A DNA stretch of 64,000 nucleotides from an uncultured Chromatiales bacterium. GTDB taxonomy: Bacteria > Pseudomonadota > Gammaproteobacteria > DATFLL01. How positions within the stretch are numbered: position 1 is the stretch's first letter; the number at the start of each line of letters is the position of its first letter. The notes beneath the pieces were generated by a model. That model made no database searches and was not told the DNA's origin. It saw only the letters and a program-made list of their open reading frames with translations. A program made the position numbers and the translations under genes. Positions 7,019 through 45,135 of this stretch are shown here, in pieces. The stretch is taken from the NCBI GenBank assembly GCA_964561765.1, contig CAZLQI010000004.1:54665-118664 (forward strand). The letters run 5' to 3'.

Positions 7019-8029
7019 CTACTCGCCTTTATAAACCAATGAATTACCAATGAGCCGAACCGTGGCTTGTGGCACCTCGCCAACAACAGTCACATAATGT
7101 TCGTCCAAACGACGCCCAAAAGCATTGACTGCACCGATCCATGAGCTACCTACCAGAGGATCGGTGCGTGTTGATAATTTCTCAATAAAGACCGAGGCCA
7201 TGCCATCCGAAAAGACCATGTGCACTACCATAGGTCGTTCGGGAACGGAGTTGTAGCGGTGGTAGGCATCGAGTTTGAATCCTGAAGGTAGATTCGCTAC
7301 CATCCAGCGCCGCGGGGTATTCAATGTCGTATCCATATCAGGTTCTTTCGCCGCATACCAGGAGAACGTCTTCCCTGACATCGTAGGTTCCAGCAGTTTA
7401 TCCGATACCTGTTTCAGGTAGTGAATTTCGGTAAACATGAATTGCTCAATCGGCTTTCCAGAATCTCCCAACAAATCTGTGCGCAATAACAGTTCGGTTT
7501 TTTTATCGACCCACAAATTGTAACCATACCGGTAATGATCACGCGGACGAATGATGATTCTCTGCGTTTCATGGCCTGCCATACGTCCAGTCCCGTCAAG
7601 CGCAAAACTGTAATGGGCGCTCAGGGAATCGGCATTGATAGGAAAATTCGGTGGGAACTGTTTGGATGGATGCACTTTCTCGACAAGCGCGGAACGATTA
7701 TCCGACAGGATGCAGGTCAGGCGGTTGTGATCAAGCACCACTTCGCGTCTAGGTCCGTTGAGTGAAATCAATCGCTCACGTTCACCCGTTGTGCCTGCAC
7801 TGTGGATAATGCGCATGGCATGCAGGTGATTATCAAAACGGTACACGAAGGCGCCGTCATATTTGAGTGTGTGTGCTGCCCGGGCCATTTTGCGCAGCCA
7901 GACCTACACTTTATCGAGCGAACCGGAATCTGTTTTCTGCCTGTTCCGTCCAGCGGCAAAGGCCATCTCACCAGCCAACAGGGTAAACAAAAACAGGATC
8001 AGGAAAAATCTCTTAACGATTCTCATTGA
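7019..8029 (-). pseudogene. rseB: Sigma-E regulatory protein RseB/MucB interrupted by an in-frame amber codon
   Basis: The signal-peptide segment MRIVKRFFLILFLFTLLAGEMAFAAG...SLDKV is followed in the same frame by TAG (complement of 7904-7906). It then continues VWLRKMARAAHTLKYDGAFVY..., which aligns with the MucB mature N-terminus DWLNRLAEADRQNSFQGTFVY. The downstream part is full-length RseB. Confidence 0.6.
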
Positions 8030-8606
8030 CCATACGGCTAGGCAACGGATAACTCACTATACGCATATAGGGCATCATGCCTTGCACCCCCGAGGCCATC
8101 GAATACTCATTGTGGTTGACGAGAAAACGGCTCAGTCTGGTTCGCACATCGCGCGTCTCATTGACCAGCTTCGTCTTGTTAGCCACGCCAGCGGCTACCG
8201 GTCCAATGCTGAGCATCGCTGCCGGCCTGGTAGTCACCACCAGATTTTCATTGACTGAAGTGCTCGGCGAGCTTGCGTGCAGGCTCAGAATTGCAACGGT
8301 CGCGATCGTGGCTGCGACAGCCATACCAATCGCCTGCTTTGCAAGGGGCTGTGTCCGCCAACCCCGACGACGTGGCGCCAATACAACCGGCTCGTGTTCC
8401 AATGCCTGACTGACACGCCCCGCCAGTCCTTGCAGCATCACATTGGGAAGATTGTTACGCAACGCATCGCTGATCAGCTGGTAGCGTTCAAAACGGGTAA
8501 GGATGTCGCCGTCGGCATGCATGCTGCTCAACACGCCCCAATGCTCATCACCGTTTAGCTCGCCGTCCAGGAAGGCGGACAACTTCTCGCTGACTGTATC
8601 GCTCAT
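8013..8606 (-). CDS. rseA: Anti-sigma-E factor RseA/MucA
   Basis: MSDTVSEKLSAFLDGEL N-terminal anti-sigma domain and a central TM segment. Overlaps the rseB start by 17 nt. Confidence 0.8.
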   Translation of the reverse strand: MSDTVSEKLSAFLDGELNGDEHWGVLSSMHADGDILTRFERYQLISDALRNNLPNVMLQGLAGRVSQALEHEPVVLAPRRRGWRTQPLAKQAIGMAVAATIATVAILSLHASSPSTSVNENLVVTTRPAAMLSIGPVAAGVANKTKLVNETRDVRTRLSRFLVNHNEYSMASGVQGMMPYMRIVSYPLPSRMVNENR

Positions 8607-8652
8607 AACTGCACTACCTCGAATTGGCAAAATCCAACCGGGACACTCTGAA

Positions 8653-9228
8653 TCAACTCAACAAAGGCGCCAGCTTGGCATCAATCGCCTCTCGTGCCCT
8701 GAAAATCCGTGATCGCACGGTTCCAATCGGACAAGACATAGCTTGCGCGATCTCCTCGTAACTCATGCCTTCCAATTCGCGCAGCGTTATCGCCGTTCGC
8801 AGATCTTCGGGTAAATCATCGATCGCCTGGAAAACCACGCGTTCGATCTCGTCTTTGAACAACATGCGCTCCGGCGTAGCATTCTCGCGCAAAGCGCCTG
8901 CGCCCTCATAATACTCGGCGTCCATCACATCAACATCCGAATCCGGCGGGCGACGCCCTTGTGCCACCAGACAATTCTTTGCCGTGTTGATGGCGATGCG
9001 GTACAGCCAGGTGTAAAACGCGCTATCACCGCGAAATGACGGCAACGCCCGGTATGCCTTGATGAAGGTCTCCTGCGCTACATCCTGTGCTTCATACTGA
9101 TCCTGGACATAGCGCGAAATCAGCTTGACGATCTTGTGCTGATACTTGATAACCAGGACATCAAATGCCTTTTTATCACCTCGCTTAACCTTCTCGACTA
9201 ACGCCTGATCAACGTTCTCCTCGGCCAT
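8653..9228 (-). CDS. rpoE: ECF sigma factor sigma-E (RpoE/AlgU)
   Basis: 191 aa with region 2 and region 4 of an ECF sigma factor, highly similar to RpoE. Confidence 0.9.
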   Translation of the reverse strand: MAEENVDQALVEKVKRGDKKAFDVLVIKYQHKIVKLISRYVQDQYEAQDVAQETFIKAYRALPSFRGDSAFYTWLYRIAINTAKNCLVAQGRRPPDSDVDVMDAEYYEGAGALRENATPERMLFKDEIERVVFQAIDDLPEDLRTAITLRELEGMSYEEIAQAMSCPIGTVRSRIFRAREAIDAKLAPLLS

Positions 9229-9277
9229 GAGGACCCATCCCCTTTCAACTCTGACGGGCCATCCGACTCCTTATCAT

Positions 9278-9305
9278 TACGACACGTACATGTCGAATAA
9301 GTTCG
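9278..9305 (-). promoter_or_regulatory. Putative sigma-E-type autoregulated promoter of rpoE
   Basis: On the minus strand, CGAACTT (consensus GGAACTT), a 16-nt spacer, then TCGTA (consensus TCTGA/TCAAA), roughly 50 nt upstream of the rpoE ATG. Confidence 0.3.
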
Positions 9306-9447
9306 CCAGATGGCCATGCTTTTGGGTATAGTGTGTCCCACCCTCGGAGGCGACAATCAACCGTAGCCAGCCTTGGATTCCCACCGGGATTAGCCTTAAT
9401 GATAACTGCAACAAAAGTACACCGCGCCAGCACTTGCCCCTTGAACT

Positions 9448-11052
9448 GTGCCTATGCCCCGCCCCGTACAACAACACTCTGACGTACTGGTCATCGGCAG
9501 TGGAGCAGCCGGCCTGAGCCTGGCGCTGCGCCTCGCAGATACTCATTCTATCTCATTGATTTCAAAAGGCCCACTATTAGATGGTTGTACCTTGTGGGCA
9601 CAGGGTGGCATTGCCGCCGTACTCGACCCCGCCGACTCGGTCTGCGCACATATCAAGGATACGCTCGACGCCGGCGCCGGGCTGTGCAATTCTGACGTAG
9701 TCAGGCATGTGGTTGAGCAAAGTGCGGCCTGTATCCACTGGCTGATAGCGCGCGGTGTGCCCTTCACATCAGGCCAGTACTCCGACGGGCGCGACGGCTA
9801 TCACCTCACCCGCGAGGGGGGACACAGCCACCGGCGCATCATCCACGCCGCCGACGCCACTGGCCAGGCCGTGGAAACCACACTCGGCGAACAGGTTCGC
9901 CGACACTCGAATATCCGTATTTTTGAACGCCACAATGCGCTTGACCTGATCACCGCGCACGCATCCGATAACGTACCCCATCGCTGTCTGGGGGCCTATG
10001 TGCTGGATCGAGACAGCGGCCATGTTGGTGTATTTCGCGCCCGCCAGATCGTACTGGCAACCGGTGGTGCCAGCAAGGTCTATCTGTACACCAGCAATCC
10101 CGACAGCGCCAGCGGTGACGGCATCGCCATGGGCTGGCGTGCGGGTTGCCGGGTGGCCGACCTGGAGTTCAACCAGTTCCATCCGACCTGCCTCTATCAC
10201 CCCAAGGCAAAATCATTTCTCATCACCGAGGCCATTCGCGGCGAAGGCGGGCAACTACGGCTGGCCGATGGTCACCGTTTCATGGACCGATTCGACCCGC
10301 GGGGCGAACTCGCGCCGCGCGATATCGTCGCCCGTGCCATCGACCACGAGATGAAACGCACCGGTGCAGACTGTGTCTATCTGGATATCAGCCACAAGCC
10401 AATCAGCTTCATCAAGGCGCATTTTCCGACCGTCTACGAACGCTGCCTGGCATTCGGCCATGATCTGAGTCGAGAGTCCATACCCGTCGTACCGGCAGCC
10501 CATTATACCTGCGGCGGTCTGGTCACCAATATCCACGGTGGTACTGATGTCGAGGGGCTCTATGCCATCGGCGAGGTCGCCAGTACCGGCCTGCATGGTG
10601 CCAACCGCATGGCCAGCAACTCGCTGTTGGAATGCCTCGTCTTCGCCAAATCTGCCAGTGAACATATCCGCGACCAACACCGCCCCCTGCCCGGTCCCCT
10701 GCCAGAATGGGATGAAAGCCGAGTGACCGACTCCGATGAAGAGGTGGTAGTCTCACATAACTGGGATGAACTGCGCCGATTCATGTGGGATTACGTGGGT
10801 ATCGTTCGCACGACAAAACGCCTGCAGCGGGCCAAAAACCGGGTGGATCTGTTACAGCGTGAAATTCAGGAATATTACGGTAATTTCCGCGTCACCAGCG
10901 ATTTACTGGAACTACGCAATCTCGCCCAGGTCGCCGAACTCATCATCCGCTCTGCCCTGCTGCGGCGTGAAAGCCGTGGTCTGCATTACACCCTCGATTA
11001 CCCCGAAGCAGATGCCACCAGCGCTGCGCTGCACACCGTGCTGACACCCTGA
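9448..11052 (+). CDS. nadB: L-aspartate oxidase
   Basis: FAD-binding GSGAAGL N-terminus and full-length NadB similarity. Divergent from rpoE, as in E. coli. Confidence 0.9.
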
Positions 11053-11090
11053 ACGACACCCATCACGGCAACCTCGGTCGCAATCACCGT

Positions 11091-11561
11091 CTATTCGCTC
11101 GCCGATGTGCGGCCCACGCCCTCCAGGCACAGGCGCACCCGGAGGCGACGCAACAGATCCTCAGGCAGGCTGTCCACGGCCAGCACGACTGCCCGGTCGC
11201 GCGCACACGGACAGGAAAAACGCAATACGATCAAAACAGGCAGAACAAGACTATCAGCCAGCAAATGGCCCTCCAGCACCTCGCCAGATCGGGTAAACAG
11301 ACGCCAGCGCCCCTCACCGGACCAATCAAGCCGCACAATCGCCGCCGGATCTCGCAAGCGCACCCGGCGCAGTCCAAGGGACAGGCTCCAGAGCACCAGA
11401 CCCAATAACCCGATGCGCAGCCCGTACGGCACACTGAGGGGAGACAACAAGGCAGTGATGCCCAGCACATGCACCGCGATTAGTGCGCAGGTCAACTGTC
11501 GCGAGGGCTGCAGCTCAAGGCTCAACCGCGTTGCGAATTTGGACGACAACATCAGCGACAT
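11091..11561 (-). CDS. ygfX: YgfX/CptA-family inner-membrane protein (DUF1434)
   Basis: About 155 aa with two TM helices after a short N-terminal segment. Immediately downstream of sdhE, as in the E. coli sdhE-ygfX pair. The start is uncertain. Confidence 0.55.
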   Translation of the reverse strand: MSLMLSSKFATRLSLELQPSRQLTCALIAVHVLGITALLSPLSVPYGLRIGLLGLVLWSLSLGLRRVRLRDPAAIVRLDWSGEGRWRLFTRSGEVLEGHLLADSLVLPVLIVLRFSCPCARDRAVVLAVDSLPEDLLRRLRVRLCLEGVGRTSASE

Positions 11562-11763
11562 CCTTGTCAAAGGGCACGGCACGGCCCATCAGATATTCCA
11601 GTAGCAAGGGATCGGAGCACGCCAGCAGGGTTTCCAGTGCCGTGCGCTGTACCGCATCCAGTTCGGCATAACGCCGGTCCATAAAACCCTGCAACAGGGC
11701 ATCGAGTTCCAGCATACCACGCCGACATTGCCAATAGAGGCGCTGGAAGTCCCGCGTCTGCAT
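11515..11763 (-). CDS. sdhE: FAD assembly factor SdhE (YgfY/CptB)
   Basis: 82 aa: MQTRDFQRLYWQCRRGMLELD... aligns with E. coli SdhE (the conserved WACRRGM.ELD motif). Confidence 0.8.
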   Translation of the reverse strand: MQTRDFQRLYWQCRRGMLELDALLQGFMDRRYAELDAVQRTALETLLACSDPLLLEYLMGRAVPFDKDVADVVVQIRNAVEP

Positions 11764-11785
11764 TACCGAAGCATCGAGCACCACG

Positions 11786-11794
11786 CCCCCCCCC
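11786..11794. repeat. Homopolymeric C9 (G9 on the coding strand) tract in the sdhB-sdhE intergenic spacer
   Basis: Nine consecutive C at 11786-11794, about 22 nt upstream of the sdhE ATG. Confidence 0.8.
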
Positions 11795-11807
11795 GGACCC
11801 GTGTCCT

Positions 11808-12503: not shown

Positions 12504-12623
12504 CAGAAAGTCCTCAATCCTCAGTGGTCAGGCAAAAATACGCCGAGGTTCCTCGCCGCCACCACCGTCAACGCCCCCTCACGTCACACCACCCTCTGCT
12601 TCTTGCCAACCACGGAGATTAGC

Positions 12624-14384: not shown

Positions 14385-14722
14385 AGCACCACGACAGACA
14401 GAACAATCATCAGGACCCACACCACCATGGCCAGCAGCGCGAGCAGAACCAGGCCGAGCAGGACCAGGCGCAAGGCCAAGGGGTGGACATAATCAATCAG
14501 GATATTGCGCAATCCGACCCAGGTATGGATCAGCAAGGCGGCAAAAAACAACGCAACAGCCACACTGACCACCGGCATCGCCAACAGCGCGTGCCATGCC
14601 GCAAAGTCCAAGGGGTACATGATGCCCAGCACGGGCAGCGCCGCCAGCACGAACACGACCAGATAGATCGCGCTCAGACGCTGCCACAGCCACGCCCTGA
14701 GGCCCTGCACACGCCAGTTCAC
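14381..14722 (-). CDS. sdhD: Succinate dehydrogenase membrane anchor subunit
   Basis: About 113 aa with three TM helices. A GTG start overlaps the sdhC TGA (GTGA). Confidence 0.75.
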   Translation of the reverse strand: MNWRVQGLRAWLWQRLSAIYLVVFVLAALPVLGIMYPLDFAAWHALLAMPVVSVAVALFFAALLIHTWVGLRNILIDYVHPLALRLVLLGLVLLALLAMVVWVLMIVLSVVVL

Positions 14723-19099: not shown

Positions 19100-20198
19100 C
19101 TAGAGTCCGCTCTTCAGACTGGCCTGAATAAACGCATCCAGCTCCCCGTCCAACACCGCCTGGGTATTGCCGGTCTCGACCCCCGTGCGCAGATCCTTGA
19201 TACGGGACTGGTCAAGCACATAGGAGCGAATCTGGCTGCCCCAGCCGATATCCGACTTGGCATCTTCCTGCGCCTGTTTCTCTTCGTTGCGCTTTTGCAG
19301 TTCCATTTCGTAGATCTTGGCCTTGAGCTGATTCATGGCATGCGCCTTGTTCTGGTGCTGGGAACGCTCACTCTGGCATTGCGCCACGATACCCGTCGGG
19401 TTATGCGTAATGCGCACTGCCGAATCGGTCCGGTTGACGTGCTGACCACCCGCACCACTGGCACGATAGGTGTCGATACGCAAGTCAACCGGATTAATCT
19501 CGATTTCGATGTCCTCATTCACTTCCGGGTAGATAAACACCGAGGCGAAGGAGGTATGGCGACGATTGCCCGAGTCGAACGGCGATTTGCGCACCAGCCG
19601 ATGCACGCCCGTCTCCGTGCGCAGCCAGCCATAAGCGTAGTCGCCGACAAATCGCACCGTAACACTCTTGAGACCAGCCACCTCTCCCCCCGAGAGTTCG
19701 ATGATCTCCGTGCTAAAACCACTGCGCTCACCCCAGCGCAGGTACATACGCAACAACATATTGGCCCAATCCTGCGCCTCGGTCCCCCCGGAACCGGCCT
19801 GAATATCCAAATAGGCATTCCTGGCATCCATGGCGCCGGAAAACATGCGCCGAAACTCCAAACCGGCCAGTTGCTGGTCGTAGGCCTCAAGCTCGTTGCT
19901 CACGGCATTGAAGGTCTCCGCATCATTCTCCTCTGCGGCCATTTCCAGCAATTCCTCAGTCTCCTGCAAGCCGGTGTCGAGTCTACGCAGGGTCTCGACG
20001 ATCTGTTCCAGACGCGCACGCTCACGGCCCAGTTCCTGGGCGTGTTCTGGGATATTCCAAACGGCGGGATCTTCCAGTTCGCGAATCACCTCTACCAGGC
20101 GTTCCTGCTTGGTATCGTAGTCAAAGATACCCCCTCAGGGCATGTGCGCGCCCTCGCATATCCTTGATACGGGTGCGCACCGCATTGCACTCCAACAT
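19100..20198 (-). CDS. prfB: Peptide chain release factor 2, with programmed +1 ribosomal frameshift
   Basis: A frame-0 leader [25 protein letters not shown] ends at CTT TGA C (complement of 20120-20126), preceded by an internal SD AGGGGG. The +1 frame continues [23 protein letters not shown]... through the GGQ motif (SGAGGQHVN). The shift site is identical to E. coli. Confidence 0.9.
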
Positions 20199-20343: not shown

Positions 20344-20787
20344 TCAAGTCCCGCTGAGCAGGTGACTGCAACGGCTCATGAGTTCATCGGCCTTTTTCTC
20401 ATCAATAAAGAGCTGGACCATTTTCTTGCAGTTTGCCGCCACTTCCAGCAGGGCATCGTGCGTGGCCGGTGCCTCCTGCAACTTCTTGACCACCTTGCTG
20501 GCGTCGGCGCCCAACACTTCCTGCGCCAGGGCGACGAGCTGCTGTTTTATCAATTCGTAATCGGTCCCACCACCGTTAGCGGGACCAACATAGCCCTCGT
20601 TAATCAACTGCCTGAGACTGTCTTCCAGTTGCGGTAGCCCGCCACCTTTTTGCAGCAGATCCGTGATCGAGGAGTGACCGTCAACCAGTATCAAGGCCAC
20701 GCGCAGACCGCTCGACAGATGCGCGCCACGGGTCGCAATTTCCGTCTCACCCTTCTGGGTCTTTTGCAGGATATCCGCGTTGTGCAT
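20344..20787 (-). CDS. Hypothetical soluble protein, weakly roadblock/LC7/MglB-like
   Basis: 147-aa ORF of unknown family. The N-terminal helix followed by LRVALILVDGHSS loosely resembles the roadblock beta1 motif. C-terminal helical tail. Confidence 0.45.
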   Translation of the reverse strand: MHNADILQKTQKGETEIATRGAHLSSGLRVALILVDGHSSITDLLQKGGGLPQLEDSLRQLINEGYVGPANGGGTDYELIKQQLVALAQEVLGADASKVVKKLQEAPATHDALLEVAANCKKMVQLFIDEKKADELMSRCSHLLSGT

Positions 20788-20791
20788 GATA

Positions 20792-21109
20792 CTACTCAGA
20801 CATGATCCGGATGATGCGGTAGATCATCTTGACAGTGATAAGGACATATATCGCACCGAACAGAAAGATCAGAGAGGCAATCATATTCAGACTTGCCACC
20901 GGTATCCGCGAGAAAAACGGTGTGGTGAGATAGCCGATAGTAAACAGGCCGACAAGCCACGACATCACGGTCCACTGACGCCCCACGACGCCACCAGGCA
21001 CCTCGGCCTTAAGACTAAGGACCAGCCAGAGACAATAGACCATCACCAGGATAGCGATAAGACTGATGAGCAGACTGGGGTATTTCATAATGTTTTGGAA
21101 TAAAAACAT
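20792..21109 (-). CDS. Hypothetical small membrane protein
   Basis: About 105 aa with three predicted TM helices. GGAGGAAA SD 9 nt before the ATG. Lower GC than the flanking genes. 4-nt gap to the downstream gene. Confidence 0.45.
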   Translation of the reverse strand: MFLFQNIMKYPSLLISLIAILVMVYCLWLVLSLKAEVPGGVVGRQWTVMSWLVGLFTIGYLTTPFFSRIPVASLNMIASLIFLFGAIYVLITVKMIYRIIRIMSE

Positions 21110-21217
21110 GGTGGCCGCTTTCCTCCGAGGTCGCATCACTGTCTGGCGTAACACTATGTTTTATTTTTATTATTTTTCGTACCTTCCTGCTCTATTATCC
21201 CCCGTATTACTCGCGAT

Positions 21218-23114: not shown

Positions 23115-24188
23115 TCACGATTTCTCACACACACCAAGTATATCGCGCAGTGGGCGTCGACGGTGCCACCCGTGTCGCCAGGCAGGGCGTTCCAGACACC
23201 ACTGCCTGCCGGTGTCACTGACCAGTGTGAGACGCCCCAATCGACCCCGGCCCAGCGCCTCCAGCAAGGGCGCCAGCCAGCAGGACTGCACCTCGCCCAG
23301 CGCCCCCAGCCAGTTGTCGGCATCCGCGGTCAATACTGCCGCATGCAGACTATCAAGCACTAACAGGGATGTCTCGTGTGCATCACACGCAGCCAGCAAG
23401 GCATCCGCATCATCCGGTAGGGCACGTCCTGGCGTATCGGTATGGCAGGCCAATCCCCGTGCCAGGGGATGATCGGCCATAACCGTGTTGAACCGGGCCG
23501 GGACCGTGGGTGGCAGCGTGCCGCCTCCCCAGAACCAGAGGCTATTGACAGGCAGACGTCCCGCCTCTTCGCGCACCGTATTGAGCGCACAGGCGTGCAG
23601 AATCATCTGCACATCGTTGAGATACCGACGCCAGCAGCGTGCCGCCTTGCCCCGTGGCAAGGCGGTGTGCATGTCCCGGCCCAACACCTCGGTCAATGGG
23701 GTGGTCTGCAGTTGCGGCGGCCCACCCGCGTCGCCACCAAGTCTGAGATACCAGCGATGTGGATGCGCCACCTCCAGATGCCAGCCCTGTTCCGCAAAGC
23801 CCGCAGCGACAGCATCGGCCAACTGCCGGGCCTCCTCCACACACAAGGCCAATGCGTCATGCGCCAGCACAAGGGCACGGTCGCGATCGATCTGCACGTA
23901 GATGGGATCGGCACGCAGCCACCAAGATCCGTCAGGTGTACCCCTATCGTGCAGCCGGGTCAGCGCCGCCACCGGCAAATCTTCCTGGGTCCCGACAGGC
24001 AGGCCAAACAGGGCAAACAGCCCGGCTTCGAGTCCCTGCACACCGGTCGTCTGGCCCCGTGCCCGCGTCAGGGCAATCTCCAGCCCGCGTAGCGCTGGCC
24101 AATCTGACAACGGCCGTTCAGACAGGCCAGACAGTGGACCACACAGTCCCGGCATATAGACGGTGAGATGAGGAGAGAATCGACTCAT
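23115..24188 (-). CDS. Conserved hypothetical protein; possibly RpfE-type / alkaline-phosphatase-superfamily phosphoglycerate-mutase-like
   Basis: 357-aa ORF between hom and recJ. The family is not recognised with certainty from sequence alone. The RpfE-type assignment is a recollection of recJ-adjacent genes in Xanthomonas. Confidence 0.4.
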   Translation of the reverse strand: MSRFSPHLTVYMPGLCGPLSGLSERPLSDWPALRGLEIALTRARGQTTGVQGLEAGLFALFGLPVGTQEDLPVAALTRLHDRGTPDGSWWLRADPIYVQIDRDRALVLAHDALALCVEEARQLADAVAAGFAEQGWHLEVAHPHRWYLRLGGDAGGPPQLQTTPLTEVLGRDMHTALPRGKAARCWRRYLNDVQMILHACALNTVREEAGRLPVNSLWFWGGGTLPPTVPARFNTVMADHPLARGLACHTDTPGRALPDDADALLAACDAHETSLLVLDSLHAAVLTADADNWLGALGEVQSCWLAPLLEALGRGRLGRLTLVSDTGRQWCLERPAWRHGWHRRRPLRDILGVCEKS

Positions 24189-30501: not shown

Positions 30502-31253
30502 AGTGTACCTGTCTCACTCAGCCAGTCGGCCACCGTCTCTAACGCGGTATAGCGGGTCAGATCGACCTGCAATGGGCTGATCGACACGTGCTGGCGGCGC
30601 ACTGCATGAAAGTCGGTACCAAGACCGGCGTCCTGCTCGCCACCGGGGGGTCCTATCCAGTAGATATCGCGGCCGCGGGGGTCGCGGGCATGGATGACCG
30701 GCTCGGCCTTGTGGCGATGCCCCAGGCGTGTCGCCTCGAAACCCTCCAGCGCCTCCCAGGTACAATCCGGCACGTTGACATTGAGTATGGTGTCCGCTGG
30801 CAACGGGGAGTGGTGCAGGCGCGCGATCAACTGCGCAACGACCCGCGCCGCGGTCTCATAGTGGCGCAACTCAGGGCCGATCAGTGAGACCGCAATCGCC
30901 GGCAATCCGAGAAAACGCCCCTCCATCGCCGCGGCCACGGTGCCGGAGTACAACACATCGTCACCCAGGTTTGCCCCGGCATTGATGCCGGCAATGACCA
31001 TGTCGGGTTCCTCGGTCAGCAAACCGGTAATGGCAAGGTGCACACAGTCGGTCGGTGTCCCGTCGACGGCAATGACATCCGCGGCAATATGGCGAGCCCG
31101 GATAGGATTGTCCAGCGTCAACGAGTTACTAGCGCCGCTGCGATCGCGATCCGGTGCCACCAGCGTGACCTGGGCCAGCTCGCGCAAGACCCCGGCAAGG
31201 CAGACAATGCCCGGGGCCAGATAACCATCATCATTACTCAACAAAATACGCAT
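30498..31253 (-). CDS. surE: 5'/3'-nucleotidase SurE
   Basis: [11 protein letters not shown]-terminus. Full-length SurE. Confidence 0.9.
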
Positions 31254-31524
31254 CTGGGTGCCATCACTCCACATATTTTCATTCCACTCCCCCCCGCCGC
31301 GCGGGCACAGCCTGGTGCAGACCGCTCACCCGCACGACTATACGCGAAAGCCCGATAACGGACACCGTCTGCACACGCCCGAACAAGGTCATCTGGAGGT
31401 AGCACCGCGCCTGCATCTGACCTCGCTGATCTGTCCGCTCCCAGCCGATACAGGTTAATGTCTATTCTTTGCGTTGAGCGTGCTTTTCGGCGATCATAAA
31501 CCCTGAACTTCCGCCCAAAATGCC

Positions 31525-32112
31525 ATGAACGATGATCACGACACGCCGCGCCGCCCCGGCGACACCTCGAAATCGCAGCAACCCGACGCGAGTGAAGACG
31601 ACAATGCCCTGTTCCGTAAGGCCATGGCACAGGTACGCCCATTGCATCACAACAAAGTCAATCTTCTCCTCCCGCCTCCCCCACCCCATACCCGGCAACG
31701 AGAACATGAGCGCTCGGAGGCGGTGTCACTCCTGCTCAGCGATCCACCCGACAATGCGGACATGGAGGCCGGCGAAGAAGTGCTGTTCTCCCGCCCGGGA
31801 TTACAGTACGGCCTGATACGCAAGCTGCGCCGCGGACAACTGAGCATGCATGGCGAACTCGATCTGCACGGAATGAGCGTGCCCGAGGCACGCGAGGCAC
31901 TCACCGGTTTCCTGCACGATGCACTTGCCCGCGGCCTCCGTGGTGTGCGTATCATCCACGGCAAGGGACATGGTTCGCCAAACCGTCGGCCTGTTCTCAA
32001 GACCCACATCAATTACTGGCTGCGCCAACGCGATGAGATCCTCGCCTTCTGCTCGGCCCGTCCCGTCGATGGCGGCACCGGTGCTGTCTACGTCCTGCTC
32101 CGACGCGTCTGA
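31525..32112 (+). CDS. Smr-domain protein (SmrA-like)
   Basis: C-terminal Smr domain LDLHGMSVPEAREAL...IIHGKG. Low-complexity acidic/Pro-rich N-terminus. Confidence 0.7.
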   Translation: MNDDHDTPRRPGDTSKSQQPDASEDDNALFRKAMAQVRPLHHNKVNLLLPPPPPHTRQREHERSEAVSLLLSDPPDNADMEAGEEVLFSRPGLQYGLIRKLRRGQLSMHGELDLHGMSVPEAREALTGFLHDALARGLRGVRIIHGKGHGSPNRRPVLKTHINYWLRQRDEILAFCSARPVDGGTGAVYVLLRRV

Positions 32113-32162
32113 ACCGAATCCCATCACACGACGGCAAGTCGGCTCACGCACAATGGCCCCAT

Positions 32163-32676
32163 TCAGCCCTCGATCTCCACCCGCTTCTCTATCGCGGGAT
32201 TGGCCGGATCATCACCGATCAGCTCACGCACCACGGCGGTGGCATAGCTCCCCGCTGGCAGACTAAAACGCAACGTCAATTCACCGGCAACACCCTGCTC
32301 CCACGCCAGATCCGTCAGCCCGAGTCGCAAGGCACGCCGTTCCTGTCGCAATCCCACACCGGCCAGTGCGAGACACCACTCATCCAGTCCCACCAGCGCC
32401 TCAGCCTCCACGGCGGCGGCCTGGGCGCACACCGGCAAACTGCGCCAGACGCCGGGCCAGCCAGTCAGTGTTCAGGCCACGTTTGCGCAATTGCAACCAG
32501 ACATGTTCACCATCGACCACCGTACCCGCACTGACCTGCAGATCGGGCACCGGGCCGGGCGTATAGCCGAGGATTTCCTCGACGACGAAATCCTCCGGTC
32601 GGGCACGCAGGATGGCGTGTGCAACCGCTGCACCGTGGGCCAGGGCGAGGGGGTGACAAACAGGGTGATCAGACAT
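32163..32676 (-). pseudogene. truD: tRNA pseudouridine(13) synthase TruD remnant with internal deletion and frameshift
   Basis: The ORF 32401-32718 encodes the TruD N-terminus (RARPEDFVVEEILGY...). The ORF 32163-32438 encodes the TruD C-terminus (LTLRFSLPAGSYATAVVRELI). The frames differ, and roughly 180 central codons are missing. Confidence 0.65.
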
Positions 32677-32830
32677 GGGGTAGAGACTGCAAGCGGGGCC
32701 GTGGACAATATCGGCCAATGAATGATTCGATGAGACTGTACACTACGGGGCGGCAATGCCGATATCACGCACTATGCGCAGCCCCGCTGACAGCACGCAA
32801 TCTGCCATCGTCCGGTACGCAGCGGACCAC

Positions 32831-33730
32831 TCACTTGGCCGTGGCCAGAGTCTTGCGCAATCCGGTCACCACACACCGCGCCAGCTCACCGGGAACAAAC
32901 TTGGTGAGAATATCATCAGCACCGCATTGGCGGGCCCTTTCCGAGTTGATGGCGCCATTGAGTGAGGTGTGTAACAACACATACATATGTGAAAAACGTG
33001 GATCCGCCCGCAGGGCCTCGGTCAAGCCGTAACCGTCGATCTCGGGCATCTCAATATCGGAGATCACCATCGCGACCGGGGCTTCGTCATCGCGGCGCTT
33101 ACGCAACGCCTCCAACGCCTCGCGTCCATCGCGTGCCAGGATATAACTCACGCCTATCTCATCCAGCATGCGGGTGGTCTGCGCGCGCGCCATGGCCGAG
33201 TCATCGACGACCAGTATCGGTTGCCTATGCAAGGCAGGGTCATCCAGCCCGCTAATGTCCTCATCCAGTGCCATCGCTGCAGGTTCGACCACCTCGACCA
33301 ACACACGTTCGATATCCAGAATCTGCACCAGAGCGTCATCCACGCGGGTTACACCGGAAATATAGGACCGCGCCCCGGAGCCATGCGGTGGTGGCGTCAC
33401 CTGATTCCAATCGCAAACCACAATCCGTTCAACGCGCTCGACCAGAAAGCCCTGGGTGGCACGGTTGAATTCGGTCACCAGCACAGAGGAACCGTGCGTC
33501 TCGATCGCCGCGCGTCCTATCGCCCGACTCAGATCAATGACCGACAACGCGACACCACGCAAGGTGGCAACACCGCAGACCGTGGCATGCGCATGCGGTA
33601 CGTGGGTCAGCGCTGGACAGGGGATTACTTCCTTGACCTTGAGCACATTGATCCCGAAACGCTGTCGACCGCCCAGGTTGAACAGCAGCAGTTCCAGGCG
33701 ATTATCGTTGCGATGGGTTGGGTCATTCAT
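32831..33730 (-). CDS. cheV: Chemotaxis protein CheV (CheW-like plus receiver domain)
   Basis: An N-terminal CheW-like domain and a C-terminal REC domain (ILVVDDSAMAR...DIEMPEIDG). Confidence 0.8.
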   Translation of the reverse strand: MNDPTHRNDNRLELLLFNLGGRQRFGINVLKVKEVIPCPALTHVPHAHATVCGVATLRGVALSVIDLSRAIGRAAIETHGSSVLVTEFNRATQGFLVERVERIVVCDWNQVTPPPHGSGARSYISGVTRVDDALVQILDIERVLVEVVEPAAMALDEDISGLDDPALHRQPILVVDDSAMARAQTTRMLDEIGVSYILARDGREALEALRKRRDDEAPVAMVISDIEMPEIDGYGLTEALRADPRFSHMYVLLHTSLNGAINSERARQCGADDILTKFVPGELARCVVTGLRKTLATAK

Positions 33731-33850
33731 GCGCGTAGGCGAATCGTAGGTCACGGTGTCTTGGCTATCGGCCGCGCGGACTATTTCTTGAATCTCGGAC
33801 ACGCCCCGCGCAGCCGCGAGGCGCTGGAGGCGCTGGAGGCGCAGCATGCA

Positions 33851-35474: not shown

Positions 35475-35845
35475 TCATCCATCACCAGAGAGGAACTGTC
35501 CCTTCTTGATGTTCACCGGCAGTCCTGGCGTGCCACGTTCTGGATAAAGTTGGTCTGCCGACACAAAAAGGCCGGTGTCTGCAACACATCGACCACTGCC
35601 GCCACCTCATTGATGGGCGTATCTTCATGCACGTCGGTGAGCACCGCCACACCGAGCTGGCGTTTGACCGACTCCAGGATACGCAGACCTTTCTCCAGCC
35701 CTAGTCCGCGGAAACTCCCGCTCGAGGTTCGGTTGGCCTTGTCGAAGGAGGATTTGTAAATGAGCGACATGCCTAGCCGCGCGGTAATGACCTGAATCGC
35801 CTCGGCCGTGTCCAGCGCCAGTTGTCTCGATCACACAGGGCCCGG
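35475..35845 (-). pseudogene. kdsA: 2-dehydro-3-deoxyphosphooctonate aldolase (KdsA) remnant
   Basis: [46 protein letters not shown]...TDVHE...[15 protein letters not shown] aligns with KdsA residues about 30-135. There is an in-frame TGA at 35831-35833 where the conserved Glu of VLESRD sits. A frameshift occurs near 35513 ([13 protein letters not shown] then stop). Both the N-terminal 25 codons and the C-terminal half are absent. Confidence 0.65.
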
Positions 35846-35891
35846 CTATCAGGAACAGGGGCAGCCTTGAAATCGCACAGCGACATCGCGC

Positions 35892-39218: not shown

Positions 39219-39414
39219 AGTGACAATAGTATGTGGGACCTGCTAAGACCGCATTGGCAGCGACTCGACCCTGCGCGACAGGGGTGAGATCACCCGCCCC
39301 CGGTCAGCCACAGCCACACTGGCAGGGCCTCAGTTCCCCCGGCAAGCCCCACACGTCAGGTACGGGAAGTGGACTCTGGCAGCAAACTCGAGGGCTTGGT
39401 CCCACGCCGCCGGG

Positions 39415-40377
39415 TCACTGCTCTTCCTTGAAATGACCCGACTGCATCAGATGCGTATAGCGTTGTTCGAGCAGCATGTCCATAGGGATGGCGTCCAACT
39501 GCGCGAGGGCCGTGTTCAGTCCGGCCTTGAGGCGCTGAGCGGTGACTTCGATGTCACGGTGGGCACCACCGAGCGGTTCCATGATCACCTCATCGATCAG
39601 CTCGAGCTGCTTGAGCCGCCCGGAAGTAATCCCCAGCGCCTCAGCCGCATCCGGTGCCTTCTCCGCGCTCTTCCACAGGATAGAGGCACAACCCTCGGGC
39701 GAGATCACCGAATAGATGCCGTATTCCAACATCATCACCCGGTCGCCGACACCGATCGCCAGCGCACCACCGGAACCGCCTTCGCCGATAACGGTGCAGA
39801 CAATCGGCGTTTTGAGCTGTGACATGATGAACAGGCTACGGGCAATGGCCTCGCTCTGCCCCCGCGCCTCGGCATCCACACCAGGGTAGGCGCCGGGGGT
39901 GTCAATAAAGGTCAGTATCGGCAGGGAAAAGCGCTCTGCTATTGCCATCAGCCGCTGTGCCTTGCGATAGCCCTCGGGGCGAGGCATAGCAAAATTACGG
40001 TAGACCTTTTCCTTGGTATCACGTCCCTTCTGATGACCAATTAACATCACCGGGCGCGCATCGAGTCGCGCCAGGCCACCCACGATCGCCGGATCATCGG
40101 CATAGGCACGATCACCGTGGAGTTCCTGAAAATCCGTGAAGATGTGCTCGACATAGTCCAGCGTGTAGGGACGTTGCGGATGACGGGCCAGTTGGGCGAT
40201 CTGCCAGGCACTGAGGTTGTCAAAGATGGATTCTGTCAGCTCGCGGCTCTTGGCCTGCAGGCGGTCGATCTCCTCACTCAGATTGATCGCCGAGTCGCTG
40301 TCAACATAGCGCAGCTCCTCGATCTTCGCCTCAAGCTCGGCGATAGGTTGTTCAAAATCCAGGAAATTCAGATTCAT
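39415..40377 (-). CDS. accA: Acetyl-CoA carboxylase carboxyltransferase alpha subunit
   Basis: Full-length AccA similarity. Confidence 0.9.
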
Positions 40378-40571
40378 GGCAATAGCGTATTGTTATCTGG
40401 GCAAAGGGATCAAACCGAGAGCAAGTATATAGGAGCACACCCCGCCTGCCTACACTATTGCCTGTGCGACGAGGGCTGTTTCACACCGTCCCGGTCAATC
40501 GAGCACGAACGCACTGGCAGGGGCCAGGGCGGGAACTCGCCCATTCGGTAGGTTCGTGCGCACCTGTAGGC

Positions 40572-43500
40572 TCAATAATCGAGATGCACGGCCGCACGAC
40601 CGGCGAGCGCGATCAGCCGGTGCAACAATTCATCGCTCGGTTGCACCCGCCACGCCTCGCCCAGGCCCAGGCGTGCGCGGGCAGCGCTGTTTTCGTAATC
40701 GAGCACCACCGGGCAGTCACCCTCACGGAAGGGTGACAGGGTGCGCTCCAGTGACCCCACGAAACCGGTACCGGTCTGTACCTGATCGAGCTTAATCACC
40801 AGGCACCGTGCATAGTGCGCACGGGCATGTTCCAGGTCATAGATAGTGCGCGCACTCATTTTGTAACCACCGCTGTACTCATCCACGCTGATCTCGCCCT
40901 CGACGACGATCAAGCGGTCCTTGGCCAACAGATCCCGATAAGACTGAAACACTTCGGCGAACACCGCCAGTTCAATACGCCCGCTGCGATCGTCGATGGT
41001 GATGAAGGCCATTCTGCCGCCGCGTCGAGTATTCATGGTGCGCATGGACATCACCAGACCTGCCACCGTCACGCTTTGGTCGCGGGTGGGTTTGAGTTGT
41101 GCAATACGCGACGTGGTGAACTTCGCCAGTTCGGGCAAATGCCGGTCAATGGGATGACCTGTGAGATACAAACCCAGCGTCTGTTTCTCTGCCGCCAGAC
41201 GCTGCTCCTCATCCCAGTCAGGCTGTACGTGGTAGACACCGCCACCGGTATCCCCTTCCCCGCTCGGCTCAAAACCGAACATGTCCTCCACACCCACCTG
41301 GTGATTCTGCATGTGCTGCTCGGCGCACTTTAGCGCATCGGGCAGGGTTGCCATGAGCGTGGCGCGGTTGACATCAAAGACATCCAACGCACCGGCAAGA
41401 ATCAGGGCCTCGAACACACGGCGATTGACACGTCGGTGGTCCACCCGGCAGCACAGGTCAAAGAGATTGACATAAGGCCTGTCGTCACCGCGCGCGGCCA
41501 CAAGGGCCTCGATCGCCGCCGCACCAACGCCCTTGATCGCCCCCAGACCATAGAGGATGGCACCGTCGCCACGCACAGTGAAGTGGTGGCTGCAGCGGTT
41601 CACATCCGGCGGTTCGACGACCAGTTTCATGTCGCGGCACTCGTCGATGAGCGTCACCACCTTGTCGGTGTTGTCCATATCGGCCGAAAGCACGGCGGCC
41701 ATGAAGGCGGCGGGAAAATGCGCCTTGAGCCAGGCCGTCTGGTAGGACACCAGGGCATAGGCGGCAGAGTGCGACTTGTTGAAACCGTAACCGGAAAAAA
41801 ATTCCATGAGGTCGAAGATGGTGCTCGCTGCCTTCTCATCGACACCGCGTGCCAGTGCGCCCTGGGTGAATATCTCGCGTTGCCTGGCCATCGCCTCGGC
41901 GTTTTTCTTGCCCATGGCGCGACGTAGCAGGTCGGCACCACCGAGTGTGTAGCCGGCCAGGACCTGGGCAATCTGCATCACCTGTTCCTGGTAGAGGATC
42001 ACGCCATAGGTAGGCTTGAGGATGGGCAATAGGTCCGGATGCGGGTATTCGACCTTGGCGCGACCTTGTTTGCGATTGATGAAGTCATCCACCATCCCTG
42101 ACCCTAGAGGACCGGGACGAAACAAGGCAACCAGCGCCACGATATCCTCGAAGGTATCGGGTTGCAGACGCTTGATCAGATCCTTCATGCCGCGGGATTC
42201 GAGTTGGAACACTGCAGTGGTCTGGCAGGCCTTGAGCAGCTCAAAGGTTAATGTGTCATCCAGCGCAATCGCCGTCATGTCGATCAGCGTCTCGCCCTGC
42301 GTGCGCCGCTGTTCATTGATGGTCTTGAGCGCCCAGTCGATGATAGTGAGGGTACGCAGACCCAGAAAGTCGAACTTGACCAGTCCAACGGCCTCGACGT
42401 CATCCTTGTCGAACTGGCTCACCAGGTTGGGCGAACCCTGCTCGCAGTACAGCGGCGTAAAGTCGGTCAATTTTGACGGCGCAATGACCACACCGCCAGC
42501 GTGCTTTCCGGCATTGCGAACCAGGCCTTCCAGCGACTGCGCCAAGTCGATGAGCATACGCACATCTTCCTCGGACTCGTAGAGCGTGCGCAGTACCTCT
42601 TCATCCTCCAGAGCCTTGGCCAGGGTCATTTTAAGTTCAAAGGGGATCAGCTTGGCAATCTTATCGACAAAACCATAAGGGTGACCCAGGACCCGGCCGA
42701 CATCACGTACTACCGCTTTGGCCGCCATCGAACCATAGGTGATGATCTGGGAAACCTTGTCTCGACCATAGCGATCAGCGACATACTCGATAACCCGGTC
42801 ACGCCCCTCCATACAAAAGTCGATATCAAAATCGGGCATGGACACACGCTCGGGATTGAGGAAGCGTTCAAACAGCAAATCATAGGCCAGCGGATCGAGG
42901 TCGGTGATGGTCAGGGCGTAGGCCACCAGCGAACCGGCACCTGAACCACGCCCCGGACCCACCGGAATGCCGTTTTCCTTCGCCCACCGGATGAAATCGG
43001 CCACGATAAGGAAGTAACCGGGAAAACCCATCGCGGTGATCACCTCCAGCTCGACGTCCAGACGCTCGTCATAGGGACGTCGGCGCTCGGTGAAATCCGC
43101 AGCGCCAGGATCGAGAAGGCGTTGCAGGCGCCGCTCCAGACCCGCCCGGGCCTCGTGTTCGAAATAGGTCTCCATACTCATCCCCGCGGGGATAGGAAAG
43201 TCCGGCAGAAAATTCTTGCCCAGAGTGAGTTCCAGATTGCAGCGTCGGGCAATCTCAACGCTGTTCTCCAGCGCCTCGGGTACATCGGCGAACAGCTCCA
43301 CCATCTCCTGCGGGCTGCGCAGATACTGCTGATCACTGTAAAGATGCGCCCGACGCGGATCGTCCAGCGTACGTCCCTCATGAATGCACACGCGGGCCTC
43401 GTGGGCCGCGAAGTCTTCACTTGAAATGAAGCACACATCGTTGGTCGCCACGATCGGCAGACCGCGTGCCAGTGCCAGGCTCACCGTTTGGTGCAGGCAC

Positions 43501-44051
43501 TCCTCCTCGCCTTCCCGACCCGTGCGTTGCAATTCCAGGTAATAGCGATCAGGGAACAAGCGCTGCCATTCATCCAGGTAACGCGCGGCCTGCTCAGAGT
43601 GTCCCGCCAGCAACGCCCGGCCGACATCGCCACTGCGACCACCGGATAAGGCAATCAGCCCGGCATTCTTGCCCTCCAACCATTCCCGACGCGCGATAGG
43701 GATGCCACGTTGCTGACCCTCGGTATAGGTGCGCGACACCAGTTCGGTGAGATGGCGGTAACCCTGTTCGTTCTGACAGAGCAACACCAGACGCGAGGGG
43801 GCATTGTCATGCCCCTCGTTGTGCAGCCACAGGTCAACACCCACAATGGGCTTGACGCCCACCGCCATGGCGGCGCGGTAGAATTTGACCATGGCAAACA
43901 GATTGCTCTGGTCCGTGAGCGCAACGGCCGGCATGCCGGCTTCGACCACGGCCTGGACCAGCGGTGTGATCCGTACCACGCTGTCAACGAGTGAGTACTC
44001 GGTGTGCAGGTGCAGGTGAACAAAATTCGGCTGAGAGCGGGGCTCGGACAT
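40572..44051 (-). CDS. dnaE: DNA polymerase III alpha subunit
   Basis: 1159 aa with a PHP domain (HLHLHTEYSLVDS) and the polymerase core. Confidence 0.95.
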   Translation of the reverse strand: MSEPRSQPNFVHLHLHTEYSLVDSVVRITPLVQAVVEAGMPAVALTDQSNLFAMVKFYRAAMAVGVKPIVGVDLWLHNEGHDNAPSRLVLLCQNEQGYRHLTELVSRTYTEGQQRGIPIARREWLEGKNAGLIALSGGRSGDVGRALLAGHSEQAARYLDEWQRLFPDRYYLELQRTGREGEEECLHQTVSLALARGLPIVATNDVCFISSEDFAAHEARVCIHEGRTLDDPRRAHLYSDQQYLRSPQEMVELFADVPEALENSVEIARRCNLELTLGKNFLPDFPIPAGMSMETYFEHEARAGLERRLQRLLDPGAADFTERRRPYDERLDVELEVITAMGFPGYFLIVADFIRWAKENGIPVGPGRGSGAGSLVAYALTITDLDPLAYDLLFERFLNPERVSMPDFDIDFCMEGRDRVIEYVADRYGRDKVSQIITYGSMAAKAVVRDVGRVLGHPYGFVDKIAKLIPFELKMTLAKALEDEEVLRTLYESEEDVRMLIDLAQSLEGLVRNAGKHAGGVVIAPSKLTDFTPLYCEQGSPNLVSQFDKDDVEAVGLVKFDFLGLRTLTIIDWALKTINEQRRTQGETLIDMTAIALDDTLTFELLKACQTTAVFQLESRGMKDLIKRLQPDTFEDIVALVALFRPGPLGSGMVDDFINRKQGRAKVEYPHPDLLPILKPTYGVILYQEQVMQIAQVLAGYTLGGADLLRRAMGKKNAEAMARQREIFTQGALARGVDEKAASTIFDLMEFFSGYGFNKSHSAAYALVSYQTAWLKAHFPAAFMAAVLSADMDNTDKVVTLIDECRDMKLVVEPPDVNRCSHHFTVRGDGAILYGLGAIKGVGAAAIEALVAARGDDRPYVNLFDLCCRVDHRRVNRRVFEALILAGALDVFDVNRATLMATLPDALKCAEQHMQNHQVGVEDMFGFEPSGEGDTGGGVYHVQPDWDEEQRLAAEKQTLGLYLTGHPIDRHLPELAKFTTSRIAQLKPTRDQSVTVAGLVMSMRTMNTRRGGRMAFITIDDRSGRIELAVFAEVFQSYRDLLAKDRLIVVEGEISVDEYSGGYKMSARTIYDLEHARAHYARCLVIKLDQVQTGTGFVGSLERTLSPFREGDCPVVLDYENSAARARLGLGEAWRVQPSDELLHRLIALAGRAAVHLDY

Positions 44052-44119
44052 GCGCAGAACTTAACGCCCGGACCGCGGGCTTTCAAGCATGATTTTTTGC
44101 CTGTGCATCGCGTGTCGCC

Positions 44120-44731
44120 TCAACCCTGTTCCGCCTCCAGCAGGCGCCGGACGGGGGCATAGGAGCGCCGATGTACGGGCGTGACGCCCAGGCTCGCCAG
44201 GGCTTCCAGGTGCTGTTTCGAGGGGTAACCCTTGTGTTTCGCCAGACCGTAACCGGGATACCTGGCATCCAGCTCAACCAGTTCCCGGTCGCGTACTACC
44301 TTGGCCAGGATCGAGGCGGCGCTGATCGAGGCGACCCGTGCATCGCCCTTGATCACCGCCTCGGCCGGGCACGGCAAGCTGGGGCAACGGTTGCCGTCGA
44401 TCAAGGCAAACTGTGGCGCCACCGACAGGGCTGCGATGGCGCGCTGCATGGCCAGCAAGCTCGCCTGCAGGATATTGATGCGGTCGATCTCCTCGACCTC
44501 GGCACGGCCCACGCCCCAGGCCAGCGCCCGCTGGCGGATTTCCTCAGCCAGACACTCGCGTTTCGCCGCGCTCAGGACCTTGGAATCGGCCAACCCCTCG
44601 ATGGGGCGCTCAGGGTCGAGAATCACCGCCGCAGCCACCACCGGCCCGGCCAAGGGGCCCCGCCCTACCTCATCCACACCGGCTACATATCGGTAACCCC
44701 GAGTGAAATCAAACCCGACTTGTGCTGACAC
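44120..44731 (-). CDS. rnhB: Ribonuclease HII
   Basis: [15 protein letters not shown] active-site motif. GTG start with a GAGGA SD. Confidence 0.9.
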
Positions 44732-44982
44732 GGTTATCCTCGCGTGACCTGTACCATGTGGGCGTCAAGCTTACCCGGACATCGGACCGCTGTCATGTCC
44801 CTGAGGACACATCTGCATCACGCATTTCACCCGGCTCGCTCACAAAGTAAAGGAACCCCTGAGTCAAGACAGAAACACGCCGAGTTTAAGCTGTGCATTC
44901 CCCTTCATACGCAGCAGGTCGGCATCGCCCCGGTGGTGGTATAAGTCTCTGATTTTCCATCACTGCCAAATCTGTCCACGAT

Positions 44983-45135
44983 CACCGCCCCGCCACCCTG
45001 GCGGCTCGCATACACCCGATCCGGCTGCCTGCATCAATGTCCACCTCCGGGCCAATCACCGTGAACAGCCCGACAGTCACACCGTCGCCTATCCTGGCAT
45101 CGGGGTCTACAACCGCGCGCGGATCGACACTCATA
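44983..45135 (-). pseudogene. lpxA: UDP-N-acetylglucosamine acyltransferase LpxA N-terminal stub (50 codons)
   Basis: The ATG overlaps the fabZ TGA (ATGA), as canonical. [40 protein letters not shown] aligns with the hexapeptide-repeat start of LpxA, then a stop. There are only about 250 nt before rnhB and no lpxB. Confidence 0.6.

Follow-up and report, generated by a model that had tools for sequence, protein, structure and literature searches.

Almost all Gammaproteobacteria are considered to depend on lipid A synthesis. Described Gram-negative bacteria deficient in lipopolysaccharide (LPS) include the colistin-resistant lpxA, lpxC and lpxD mutants of Acinetobacter baumannii, the lpxA mutants of Neisseria meningitidis and Moraxella catarrhalis, and the Buchnera-type endosymbionts that have no lpx genes. 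We know of no gammaproteobacterium other than reduced insect endosymbionts and laboratory or clinical mutants that lacks lipid A. Suppressor strains of Escherichia coli that are deficient in 3-deoxy-D-manno-octulosonic acid (Kdo), of the KPM22 type, live with lipid IVA only. In this pathway KdsA makes Kdo-8-phosphate, LpxA catalyzes the first step of lipid A synthesis and LpxB the disaccharide step. Loss of RseB (MucB) is known from E. coli rseB null mutants and from the mucB (algN) mutants of Pseudomonas aeruginosa, which turn mucoid. Pseudogenes accumulate in recently host-restricted bacteria such as Sodalis glossinidius, the Sitophilus oryzae primary endosymbiont, Mycobacterium leprae and Shigella, and deletions between short direct repeats by slipped misalignment are classical from the lacI deletion spectrum. 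The subject of this analysis is a stretch of 64,000 nucleotides from an uncultured Chromatiales bacterium (contig CAZLQI010000004.1, positions 54,665 to 118,664; hereafter the window), in which the native copies of rseB, truD, kdsA, eno, lpxA and lpxB are disrupted or missing.

The comparisons with independent assemblies, with a sister lineage and with related loci make it quite probable that the native chromosomal copies of these six core genes have been inactivated in a lineage-specific manner, in steps rather than in a burst, and that the lesions are fixed in a natural population of this uncultured gammaproteobacterium. The initial annotation had listed four lesions in otherwise intact, syntenic core genes: a nonsense codon in rseB, an internal deletion in truD, a kdsA fragment with loss of eno, and an lpxA stub with loss of lpxB. 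All four are present, with corrected coordinates, and the remaining genes are indeed full length. The features concerned are as follows, in window positions:

7019..8026, minus strand: rseB pseudogene, with a nonsense codon and a 2-amino-acid deletion
32163..32676, minus strand: truD pseudogene, with a 611-nucleotide deletion that removed codons 85-288 and shifted the frame
32426..32436, minus strand: truD deletion junction, one copy of the 11-nucleotide direct repeat GCCGGTGTGCG
35478..35886, minus strand: kdsA pseudogene, codons ~1-146 of ~277
35825..35826, no strand: assembly seam, where contigs VAOZ01119093.1 and VAOZ01069199.1 of GCA_006240935.1 abut
44732..45015, minus strand: spacer of ~285 nucleotides, unassignable, between the lpxA breakpoint and rnhB
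44982..45134, minus strand: lpxA stub, a 50-codon open reading frame (ORF) with ~40 codons of LpxA at its start
45582..46649, minus strand: lpxD, intact, 355 amino acids, the remaining lipid A gene of the operon

Matches to the gene families (NCBIfam models and tblastn) lie at the expected syntenic positions, in the orders rpoE-rseABC, ispDF-truD-surE, pyrG-kdsA-eno-ftsB and lpxD-fabZ-lpxA-lpxB-rnhB. The set of relatives consisted of 160 related loci fetched around dnaE. Where the fabZ-rnhB interval could be compared, a full lpxA was found in 83 of 84 loci and a full lpxB in 82 of 84, and the pyrG-ftsB interval held a full kdsA in 33 of 37 loci and a full eno in 36 of 37. The nearest of the more distant relatives share 64-73% DnaE identity with the window, and their genes are intact wherever the contigs reach far enough, either as intact lpxA and lpxB near dnaE or as an intact kdsA-eno-ftsB-ispD-ispF-truD series. 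The enolase of the closest placed relative in the genome collection (L002) matches those of Thiohalomonadaceae metagenome-assembled genomes (MAGs). In that same relative the rnhB-lpxB-lpxA-fabZ-lpxD block does not lie within 10 kb upstream of dnaE, and the stable order is broken there in a different way.

The lesions are real. Two NCBI contigs match the window at 100% identity (VAOZ01119093.1 at positions 1-35825 and VAOZ01069199.1 at positions 35826-64000), as do the Logan assemblies of runs SRR6439355, SRR6439356 and SRR6439361. The lpxA stub without lpxB recurs in SRR6439355_1804, which belongs to a second strain, with a single residue changed in DnaE, and which aligns without gaps at 99.90% identity over 16.7 kb, while the kdsA/eno and truD junctions are reproduced in SRR14803402. 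At 99.77-99.90% identity, the second strain carries the same truD, kdsA/eno and lpxA/lpxB junctions with no gaps. An artefact of assembly, binning or sequencing, which the initial annotation had offered as one source of the lesions, is extremely improbable on these data. It would draw on the fact that the window is two contigs joined at 35826|35825, with 6 nucleotides missing within the kdsA remnant, and on the co-occurring strains that fragment the assemblies; against this, contiguous independent assemblies carry the same sequence over every junction, and in the sister lineage kdsA has the same frameshift but a different deletion of its own. The missing nucleotides, TCTGAT or TCCGAA in the contiguous independent assemblies, sit exactly on the shared +1 frameshift site of kdsA. 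A contig of SRR14803402 (L085, 99.77% identical) spans the seam with six more bases only, TCTGAT, and the sister also has six bases there. Since a contiguous assembly bridges the seam, nothing is hidden beyond these 6 nucleotides.

The sister lineage was found through variants of LpxD, FtsB, IspD, IspF and a CheV-like protein that were at least 90% identical to those of the window and came from run SRR25425416. Its contigs (L173 and L174) have 92-93% nucleotide identity to the window, with a median dS of 0.22 over 24 genes. The comparison is most informative for kdsA, which in the window begins at ATG 35886 and is truncated after KKGQFL, at approximately 35478-35487. Three lesions mark the remnant: a +1 frameshift after CVIES(D), the loss of 11 nucleotides around codon 9, and another frameshift around codon 134. 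The 3′ half of kdsA and the whole of eno are absent upstream of ftsB (ATG 35431). No enolase-like sequence was found anywhere in the window, and no remnant of eno, lpxB or the kdsA 3′ end was detected even at E = 10-50. Relative to five outgroups, the extra nucleotide after AGPCV(I/F)ES(D/E) is common to the window and the sister, which indicates that kdsA was already frameshifted in their common ancestor; the 11-nucleotide deletion is the window's own and not the shared lesion. The sister has lost an internal block of kdsA and kept codons ~1-27 and the last ~50, whereas the window kept codons ~1-146 and lost the end. Both lineages are missing eno. The window remnant has changed at 4 of 35 columns that are at least 90% conserved, compared with 2.1% in intact genes (p = 0.008), in keeping with decay.

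The truD pseudogene starts at ATG 32676 with 84 native codons; the junction follows, then seven codons out of frame before a premature stop at 32403-32401, and a C-terminal remnant extends to ~32163. The deletion takes out the GLKD motif with the catalytic aspartate. In the sister (L174) truD is intact, with 374 codons, and the two repeats lie 611 nucleotides apart, GCCGGCGTGCG at sister position 4760 and GCCGGTGTGCG at 5371. As judged from the aligned sequences, truD was lost in the window lineage only, by what is demonstrably the footprint of a slipped-misalignment deletion between 11-nucleotide direct repeats. As in the deletions of the lacI spectrum, exactly one of the two 11-nucleotide repeats (10 of 11 positions identical) is gone along with the intervening 600 nucleotides, and nothing sets the event apart from that class. 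A decay test of the truD remnant, which offers few columns, showed 0 of 8 changed at the level of at least 90% conservation and 2 of 11 at the level of at least 80%.

Several observations were made in the surroundings of truD. Of 16 substitutions between the window and the second strain (L085), 14 fall within 31095-32780, a segment that covers the surE 5′ end, smr and the truD remnant; all of those in the segment are transitions, four of them synonymous in surE, and the pattern looks like a recombination patch and not like relaxed constraint. Between ispF and truD there is a CheV-like gene (CheW plus receiver domain, 32831-33847); an Smr-domain gene (31525-32112, opposite strand) separates truD from surE. 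Both are present in the sister and not at these positions in more distant relatives. The CheV-like gene has a 9-nucleotide in-frame insertion or deletion (33834-33842) between the two strains, and the sister protein has 299 residues as against 338.

At the lpxA breakpoint (45016|45015) the native reading frame is followed by 10 unrelated codons and a stop, which leaves ~40 of ~260 codons. No lpxB gene lies between the stub and rnhB, and in the spacer at 44732..45015 the searches for remnants of LpxA or LpxB, for promoter-like or terminator-like sites and for repeats were all negative. The sister contig, in contrast, continues as canonical LpxA past the window breakpoint, for 56 residues up to its end. 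The alignments strongly suggest a single deletion, restricted to the window lineage, that removed lpxB and all of lpxA starting at codon 41. The ORF at 45131-45706 could be mistaken for lpxA but is fabZ. A horizontally acquired tract (fabZ-lpxD-skp-bamA, with low third-position G+C) that ends at the deletion was considered as the cause of the lpxA-lpxB loss and was rejected, since this tract is present in the sister, at 93% identity, and lpxA is still there.

Third-position G+C in that tract (45131-49529) is 0.55-0.59. It is likewise low from recO to a glutaredoxin-like gene (355-6164; 0.41-0.51) and in rseB (7019-7888; 0.52), and elsewhere in the window it is 0.65-0.75. Skp and BamA have their best similarity to relatives other than those nearest in DnaE, AccA and PyrG. 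The fabZ-bamA island is common to the sister and is therefore older than the lpxA-lpxB deletion; whether it reflects an old horizontal replacement is raised here as a question only.

The rseB reading frame starts at ATG 8026-8024, overlapping the end of rseA as in relatives, and encodes the signal peptide MRIVKRFFLILFLFTLLAGEMAFA. An in-frame TAG at 7906-7904 (codon 41) falls between the signal peptide and the protein body, after which the frame is open to the normal stop at 7021-7019. Because codon 41 aligns with a glutamine that is conserved in the closest homologs, the change just after the signal peptide was CAG to TAG. A 2-amino-acid deletion lies in the conserved DGMASVSVFIEK motif, and eight unique changes occur at columns invariant in seven relatives, a count that is confounded by the shape of the tree. 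The best 119 RseB homologs, with the window's own fragment excluded, are 288-348 amino acids long, nearly all of them above 305, and the two closest (71% and 68% identity) have 340 and 337 amino acids and a signal peptide; the one at 68% comes from an organism other than the sister. The rseB sequence is identical (100%) in the Logan assemblies of SRR6439355 and SRR6439356. Since the downstream frame is still open, the lesion is probably young. As in the rseB and mucB mutants, the periplasmic shield of RseA/MucA is truncated within a conserved rpoE-rseA-rseB-rseC operon; a difference is that the ORF downstream of the stop is still open. In the periplasm, RseB keeps the anti-sigma factor RseA out of reach of DegS, and on binding LPS it releases RseA (PMC3944529). 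With RseB lost, LPS would be expected to drop out as a gate on the sigma-E response, so that only the outer-membrane-protein signal remains and the response is easier to trigger.

These lesions can be arranged in a probable order. The comparison shows that the +1 frameshift killed kdsA before the split from the sister (dS about 0.22) and that each lineage afterwards deleted a different part of the dead gene. Loss of kdsA, and probably of eno, thus came first; the truD deletion followed in the window lineage, and so, it appears, did that of lpxA-lpxB. A number of points weigh against this stepwise history. Only 1 of 27 columns of the kdsA remnant that are at least 97% conserved has changed, compared with ~6 expected under neutrality since the split (p = 0.008), and the same comparison at columns at least 90% conserved, with 4 of 35 changed, gives p = 0.07. 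Possibly the shared frameshift postdates the split, for instance because the lineages exchanged DNA, or the sample is simply too small. The full-length sister LpxA was sought with its 56-residue start, and short fragments only were recovered. The sister contigs found for rseB (L175) end at codon 14 or earlier, and the order given here covers kdsA, eno, truD and lpxA-lpxB. The comparison as a whole covers ~64 kb of this genome and ~22 kb of the sister.

The initial annotation had placed the four lesions in the context of genomes under relaxed selection, such as those of recently host-restricted symbionts. One part of this idea stands, in that genes have truly been eroded, in a lineage-specific way and at different times, but a genome-wide relaxation is not seen: the window is 90% coding and has no insertion sequence (IS) elements, and its conserved residues turn over at an ordinary rate. 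Near-invariant residues were changed at 6 of 810 positions (0.74%), which is the median of 108 loci (rank 54th). The endosymbiont Candidatus Dasytiphilus stammeri, present among these loci as a control, was an extreme outlier with 7.3% changed, ten-fold higher. The ratio of nonsynonymous to synonymous substitution rates (dN/dS) between the window and the sister ranged from 0.016 to 0.365 across 24 comparable genes, with a median of 0.09, and regulatory and motility-related genes (rpoS, rpoE, glnD, the CheV-like gene with CheW and receiver domains, and an HDOD gene) are intact. Our data thus point to relaxed selection on particular genes and not on the genome.

A recently host-restricted symbiont, in which the four lesions would be a local sample of pervasive pseudogenization, is accordingly considered quite unlikely. 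In its favor are the presence of four lesions in 64 kb of core operons, their accumulation over time, and the recurrence of the organism or its sister in unrelated sequencing projects (at least three run sets, from 2018, 2021 and 2023), one of which is numbered 20 from a Haematococcus pluvialis genome run; the host link is unconfirmed. Sodalis-type erosion is similar in its several independent inactivations of conserved genes, with point lesions before deletions and differing ages. It differs in that the present window shows no IS expansion, 90% coding density, normal dN/dS and conserved-residue turnover, intact regulatory genes, and few, focused losses.

With regard to the possible host, SRR25425436 holds PacBio data of the Haematococcus pluvialis genome project (PMC10400597), and the sister runs SRR25425414 and SRR25425416 are numbered 22 and 20 below it, an unconfirmed lead; the Haematococcus papers contained no accession or taxon that would bear it out. 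The 2018 H. pluvialis draft was made with SOAPdenovo2 and GapCloser from seven libraries (PMC6330051). That assembly would fit the consecutive runs, the fragmentation and the scaffold seams, and its identity with GCA_006240935.1 is unconfirmed.

A further source of lesions named in the initial annotation is duplication of the region, with the window as the decaying second copy. Apart from the lesions themselves, nothing speaks for such a copy. Approximately 58 genes are intact, among them many essential genes of which bacteria usually have one copy (dnaE, rpsB, tsf, lysS and prfB), and the 24 that could be tested are under strong purifying selection; this ordinary dN/dS excludes a decaying duplicate of the region for practical purposes, and we rate it as very unlikely. 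The window contains no repeats, and each protein that was looked up lay on one contig per assembly.

Three of the four events touch LPS, namely those in kdsA and lpxA-lpxB and that in rseB, whose product acts as a sensor. Two of the four fall on the four LPS genes among ~64 gene slots (post hoc p ~0.02), and with RseB included the three of four give a post hoc p of ~0.002. Such a focus would make a coherent history, against which lpxD speaks strongly. All 40 near-invariant columns of LpxD are conserved and none of 54 columns that are at least 90% conserved has changed, and dN/dS relative to the sister is 0.13 at a dS of ~0.27. The invariant-residue test cannot by itself tell a functional gene from a recent orphan, as the dead kdsA remnant also keeps 26 of 27 columns at the level of at least 97%; the thresholds of at least 90% and at least 80%, and dN/dS relative to the sister, are more informative. 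When the amino-acid changes in LpxD were polarized, eight fell on the window branch and two on the sister branch, compared with 25:25 in ten control genes, a weak excess (p = 0.08).

Two readings of these losses were weighed. The first is functional displacement, in which intact copies of kdsA, eno, lpxA and lpxB are located elsewhere in the genome, the native copies became redundant and then decayed, and no function was lost; we give it about an even chance of being correct. It accords with the constraint on lpxD over the period after the shared kdsA frameshift and with the canonical start of the sister lpxA. Enolase is near-universal, and the region looks metabolically complete (sdhCDAB, nadB, glnD, rpoS). 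The loss of adjacent gene pairs would fit a relocated segment. However, the 120 top hits obtained with the enolase of the closest relative included none with the organism's source pattern (NCBI and Logan, 3-4 contigs), a weak test because a foreign copy would not rank there. Displacement also leaves the truD and rseB lesions unexplained, as well as the fact that three of the four events concern LPS. For kdsA itself, redundancy with a copy elsewhere in the genome is most likely, since lpxD stayed constrained long after kdsA died, so that lipid A must still have been made when the native kdsA was gone, and the same probably applies to eno. The more recent losses of lpxA-lpxB, truD and rseB may be true functional losses.

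The second reading is a stepwise dismantling of Kdo2-lipid A, in which Kdo synthesis was given up first and lpxA-lpxB afterwards, RseB was silenced, and lpxD is an orphan that has not yet decayed, so that the lineage would be naturally free of LPS; this is possible but doubtful. The concentration of events on LPS genes favors it, as does the release of RseA by RseB upon LPS binding (PMC3944529). The excess of LpxD changes on the window branch, the eight unique changes in RseB and its 2-amino-acid deletion point in the same direction. It is opposed by the purifying selection on lpxD long after the death of kdsA and by the integrity of all near-invariant LpxD residues, and the rest of the pathway (lpxC, lpxH, lpxK, waaA and the lpt genes) lies outside the window. 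Regarded as an LPS-free bacterium, the organism has no functional lpxA or lpxB at the native locus, but its lpxD is neither absent nor decaying. In terms of outcomes, it is about a coin toss whether all functions are covered elsewhere; that lipid A is no longer made in the window lineage is less probable, and a smaller share is left undecided.

The window lineage resembles the LPS-deficient Gram-negative bacteria described above in having lost lpxA, the first gene of lipid A synthesis, along with lpxB and kdsA. It is different in that the lesions are fixed in a wild population, in two strains, that lpxD, bamA, skp and rseP are kept and conserved, and that other copies are possible. The Kdo-deficient KPM22-type strains resemble it in that Kdo-8-phosphate synthesis is lost while the early lpx genes are in use, a condition that would account for the continued constraint on lpxD once kdsA had died; unlike this lineage, they are laboratory constructs that need an msbA or yhjD suppressor.

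The remainder of the window is ordinary. Its gene order is that of a Pseudomonas-type, gammaproteobacterial chromosome, the coding density is 90%, and against curated family models the ~58 other genes are full length. The gene blocks and further features are:

recO-era-rnc-lepB-lepA; rseC-rseB-rseA-rpoE; nadB, sdhCDAB, ygfZ, lysS-prfB, recJ, hom
rpoS-nlpD-pcm-surE; truD, ispF-ispD-ftsB; pyrG-tilS-accA-dnaE-rnhB
fabZ-lpxD-skp-bamA-rseP-dxr-cdsA-uppS-frr-pyrH-tsf-rpsB; map-glnD, dapC
20120-20140: prfB programmed +1 frameshift site (AGGGGG TAT CTT TGA C), intact
57176-57304: t44 RNA (rpsB leader), upstream of rpsB, 68 bits, the sole Rfam match in the window

No tRNA genes were found in the window, and within it there were no repeats of at least 25 nucleotides beyond chance matches, no IS elements, no miniature inverted-repeat transposable elements, and no dispersed or junction repeats. 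Two loci were considered as additional lesions and rejected. The split frame of prfB is the normal programmed frameshift, with the site AGGGGGTATCTTTGAC, and the ORF at 23115-24188 (357 amino acids), between hom and recJ, aligns end to end with thousands of homologs of ~350 residues. This ORF has weak scores against phosphoglycerate-mutase-like and 'proposed homoserine kinase' models and is a member of a large, apparently unnamed family adjoining threonine-pathway genes. Two adjacent ORFs of 147 and 120 residues (20344-21154), between prfB and recJ, have normal codon composition and gave no NCBIfam or Pfam match. Extension of the contigs past the window ends gained ~1.5 kb and ~2.5 kb. Two independent per-run contigs (L090 and L091) stop at one point ~1.5 kb beyond window position 1, following pdxJ, acpS and an Hpt-domain gene, which suggests a repeat or strain-variable region just outside the window.

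As a kind of event, the formation of pseudogenes and deletions within bacterial lineages is already known; the targets, lpxA, lpxB, kdsA and eno, and the dated steps are unusual. Through the sister lineage the steps could be dated, as is rarely possible with uncultured organisms, and as a point of method, lesions derived from metagenomes can be validated and ordered in time through public per-run assemblies. For the biology of the organism the losses have two possible meanings. Either lpxA, lpxB and kdsA have moved, which would be an unusual reorganization of a very stable gene order, or LPS is being given up. The latter would mean, and we put it forward only tentatively, that a bacterium with an otherwise ordinary, compact and conserved genome is taking Kdo2-lipid A synthesis apart step by step. 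If this is true, the lineage would be a wild, LPS-free or nearly LPS-free gammaproteobacterium caught in transition, possibly one that lives with a green alga, and it would offer a natural system for the outer membrane, BamA, Skp and the sigma-E circuit without LPS.

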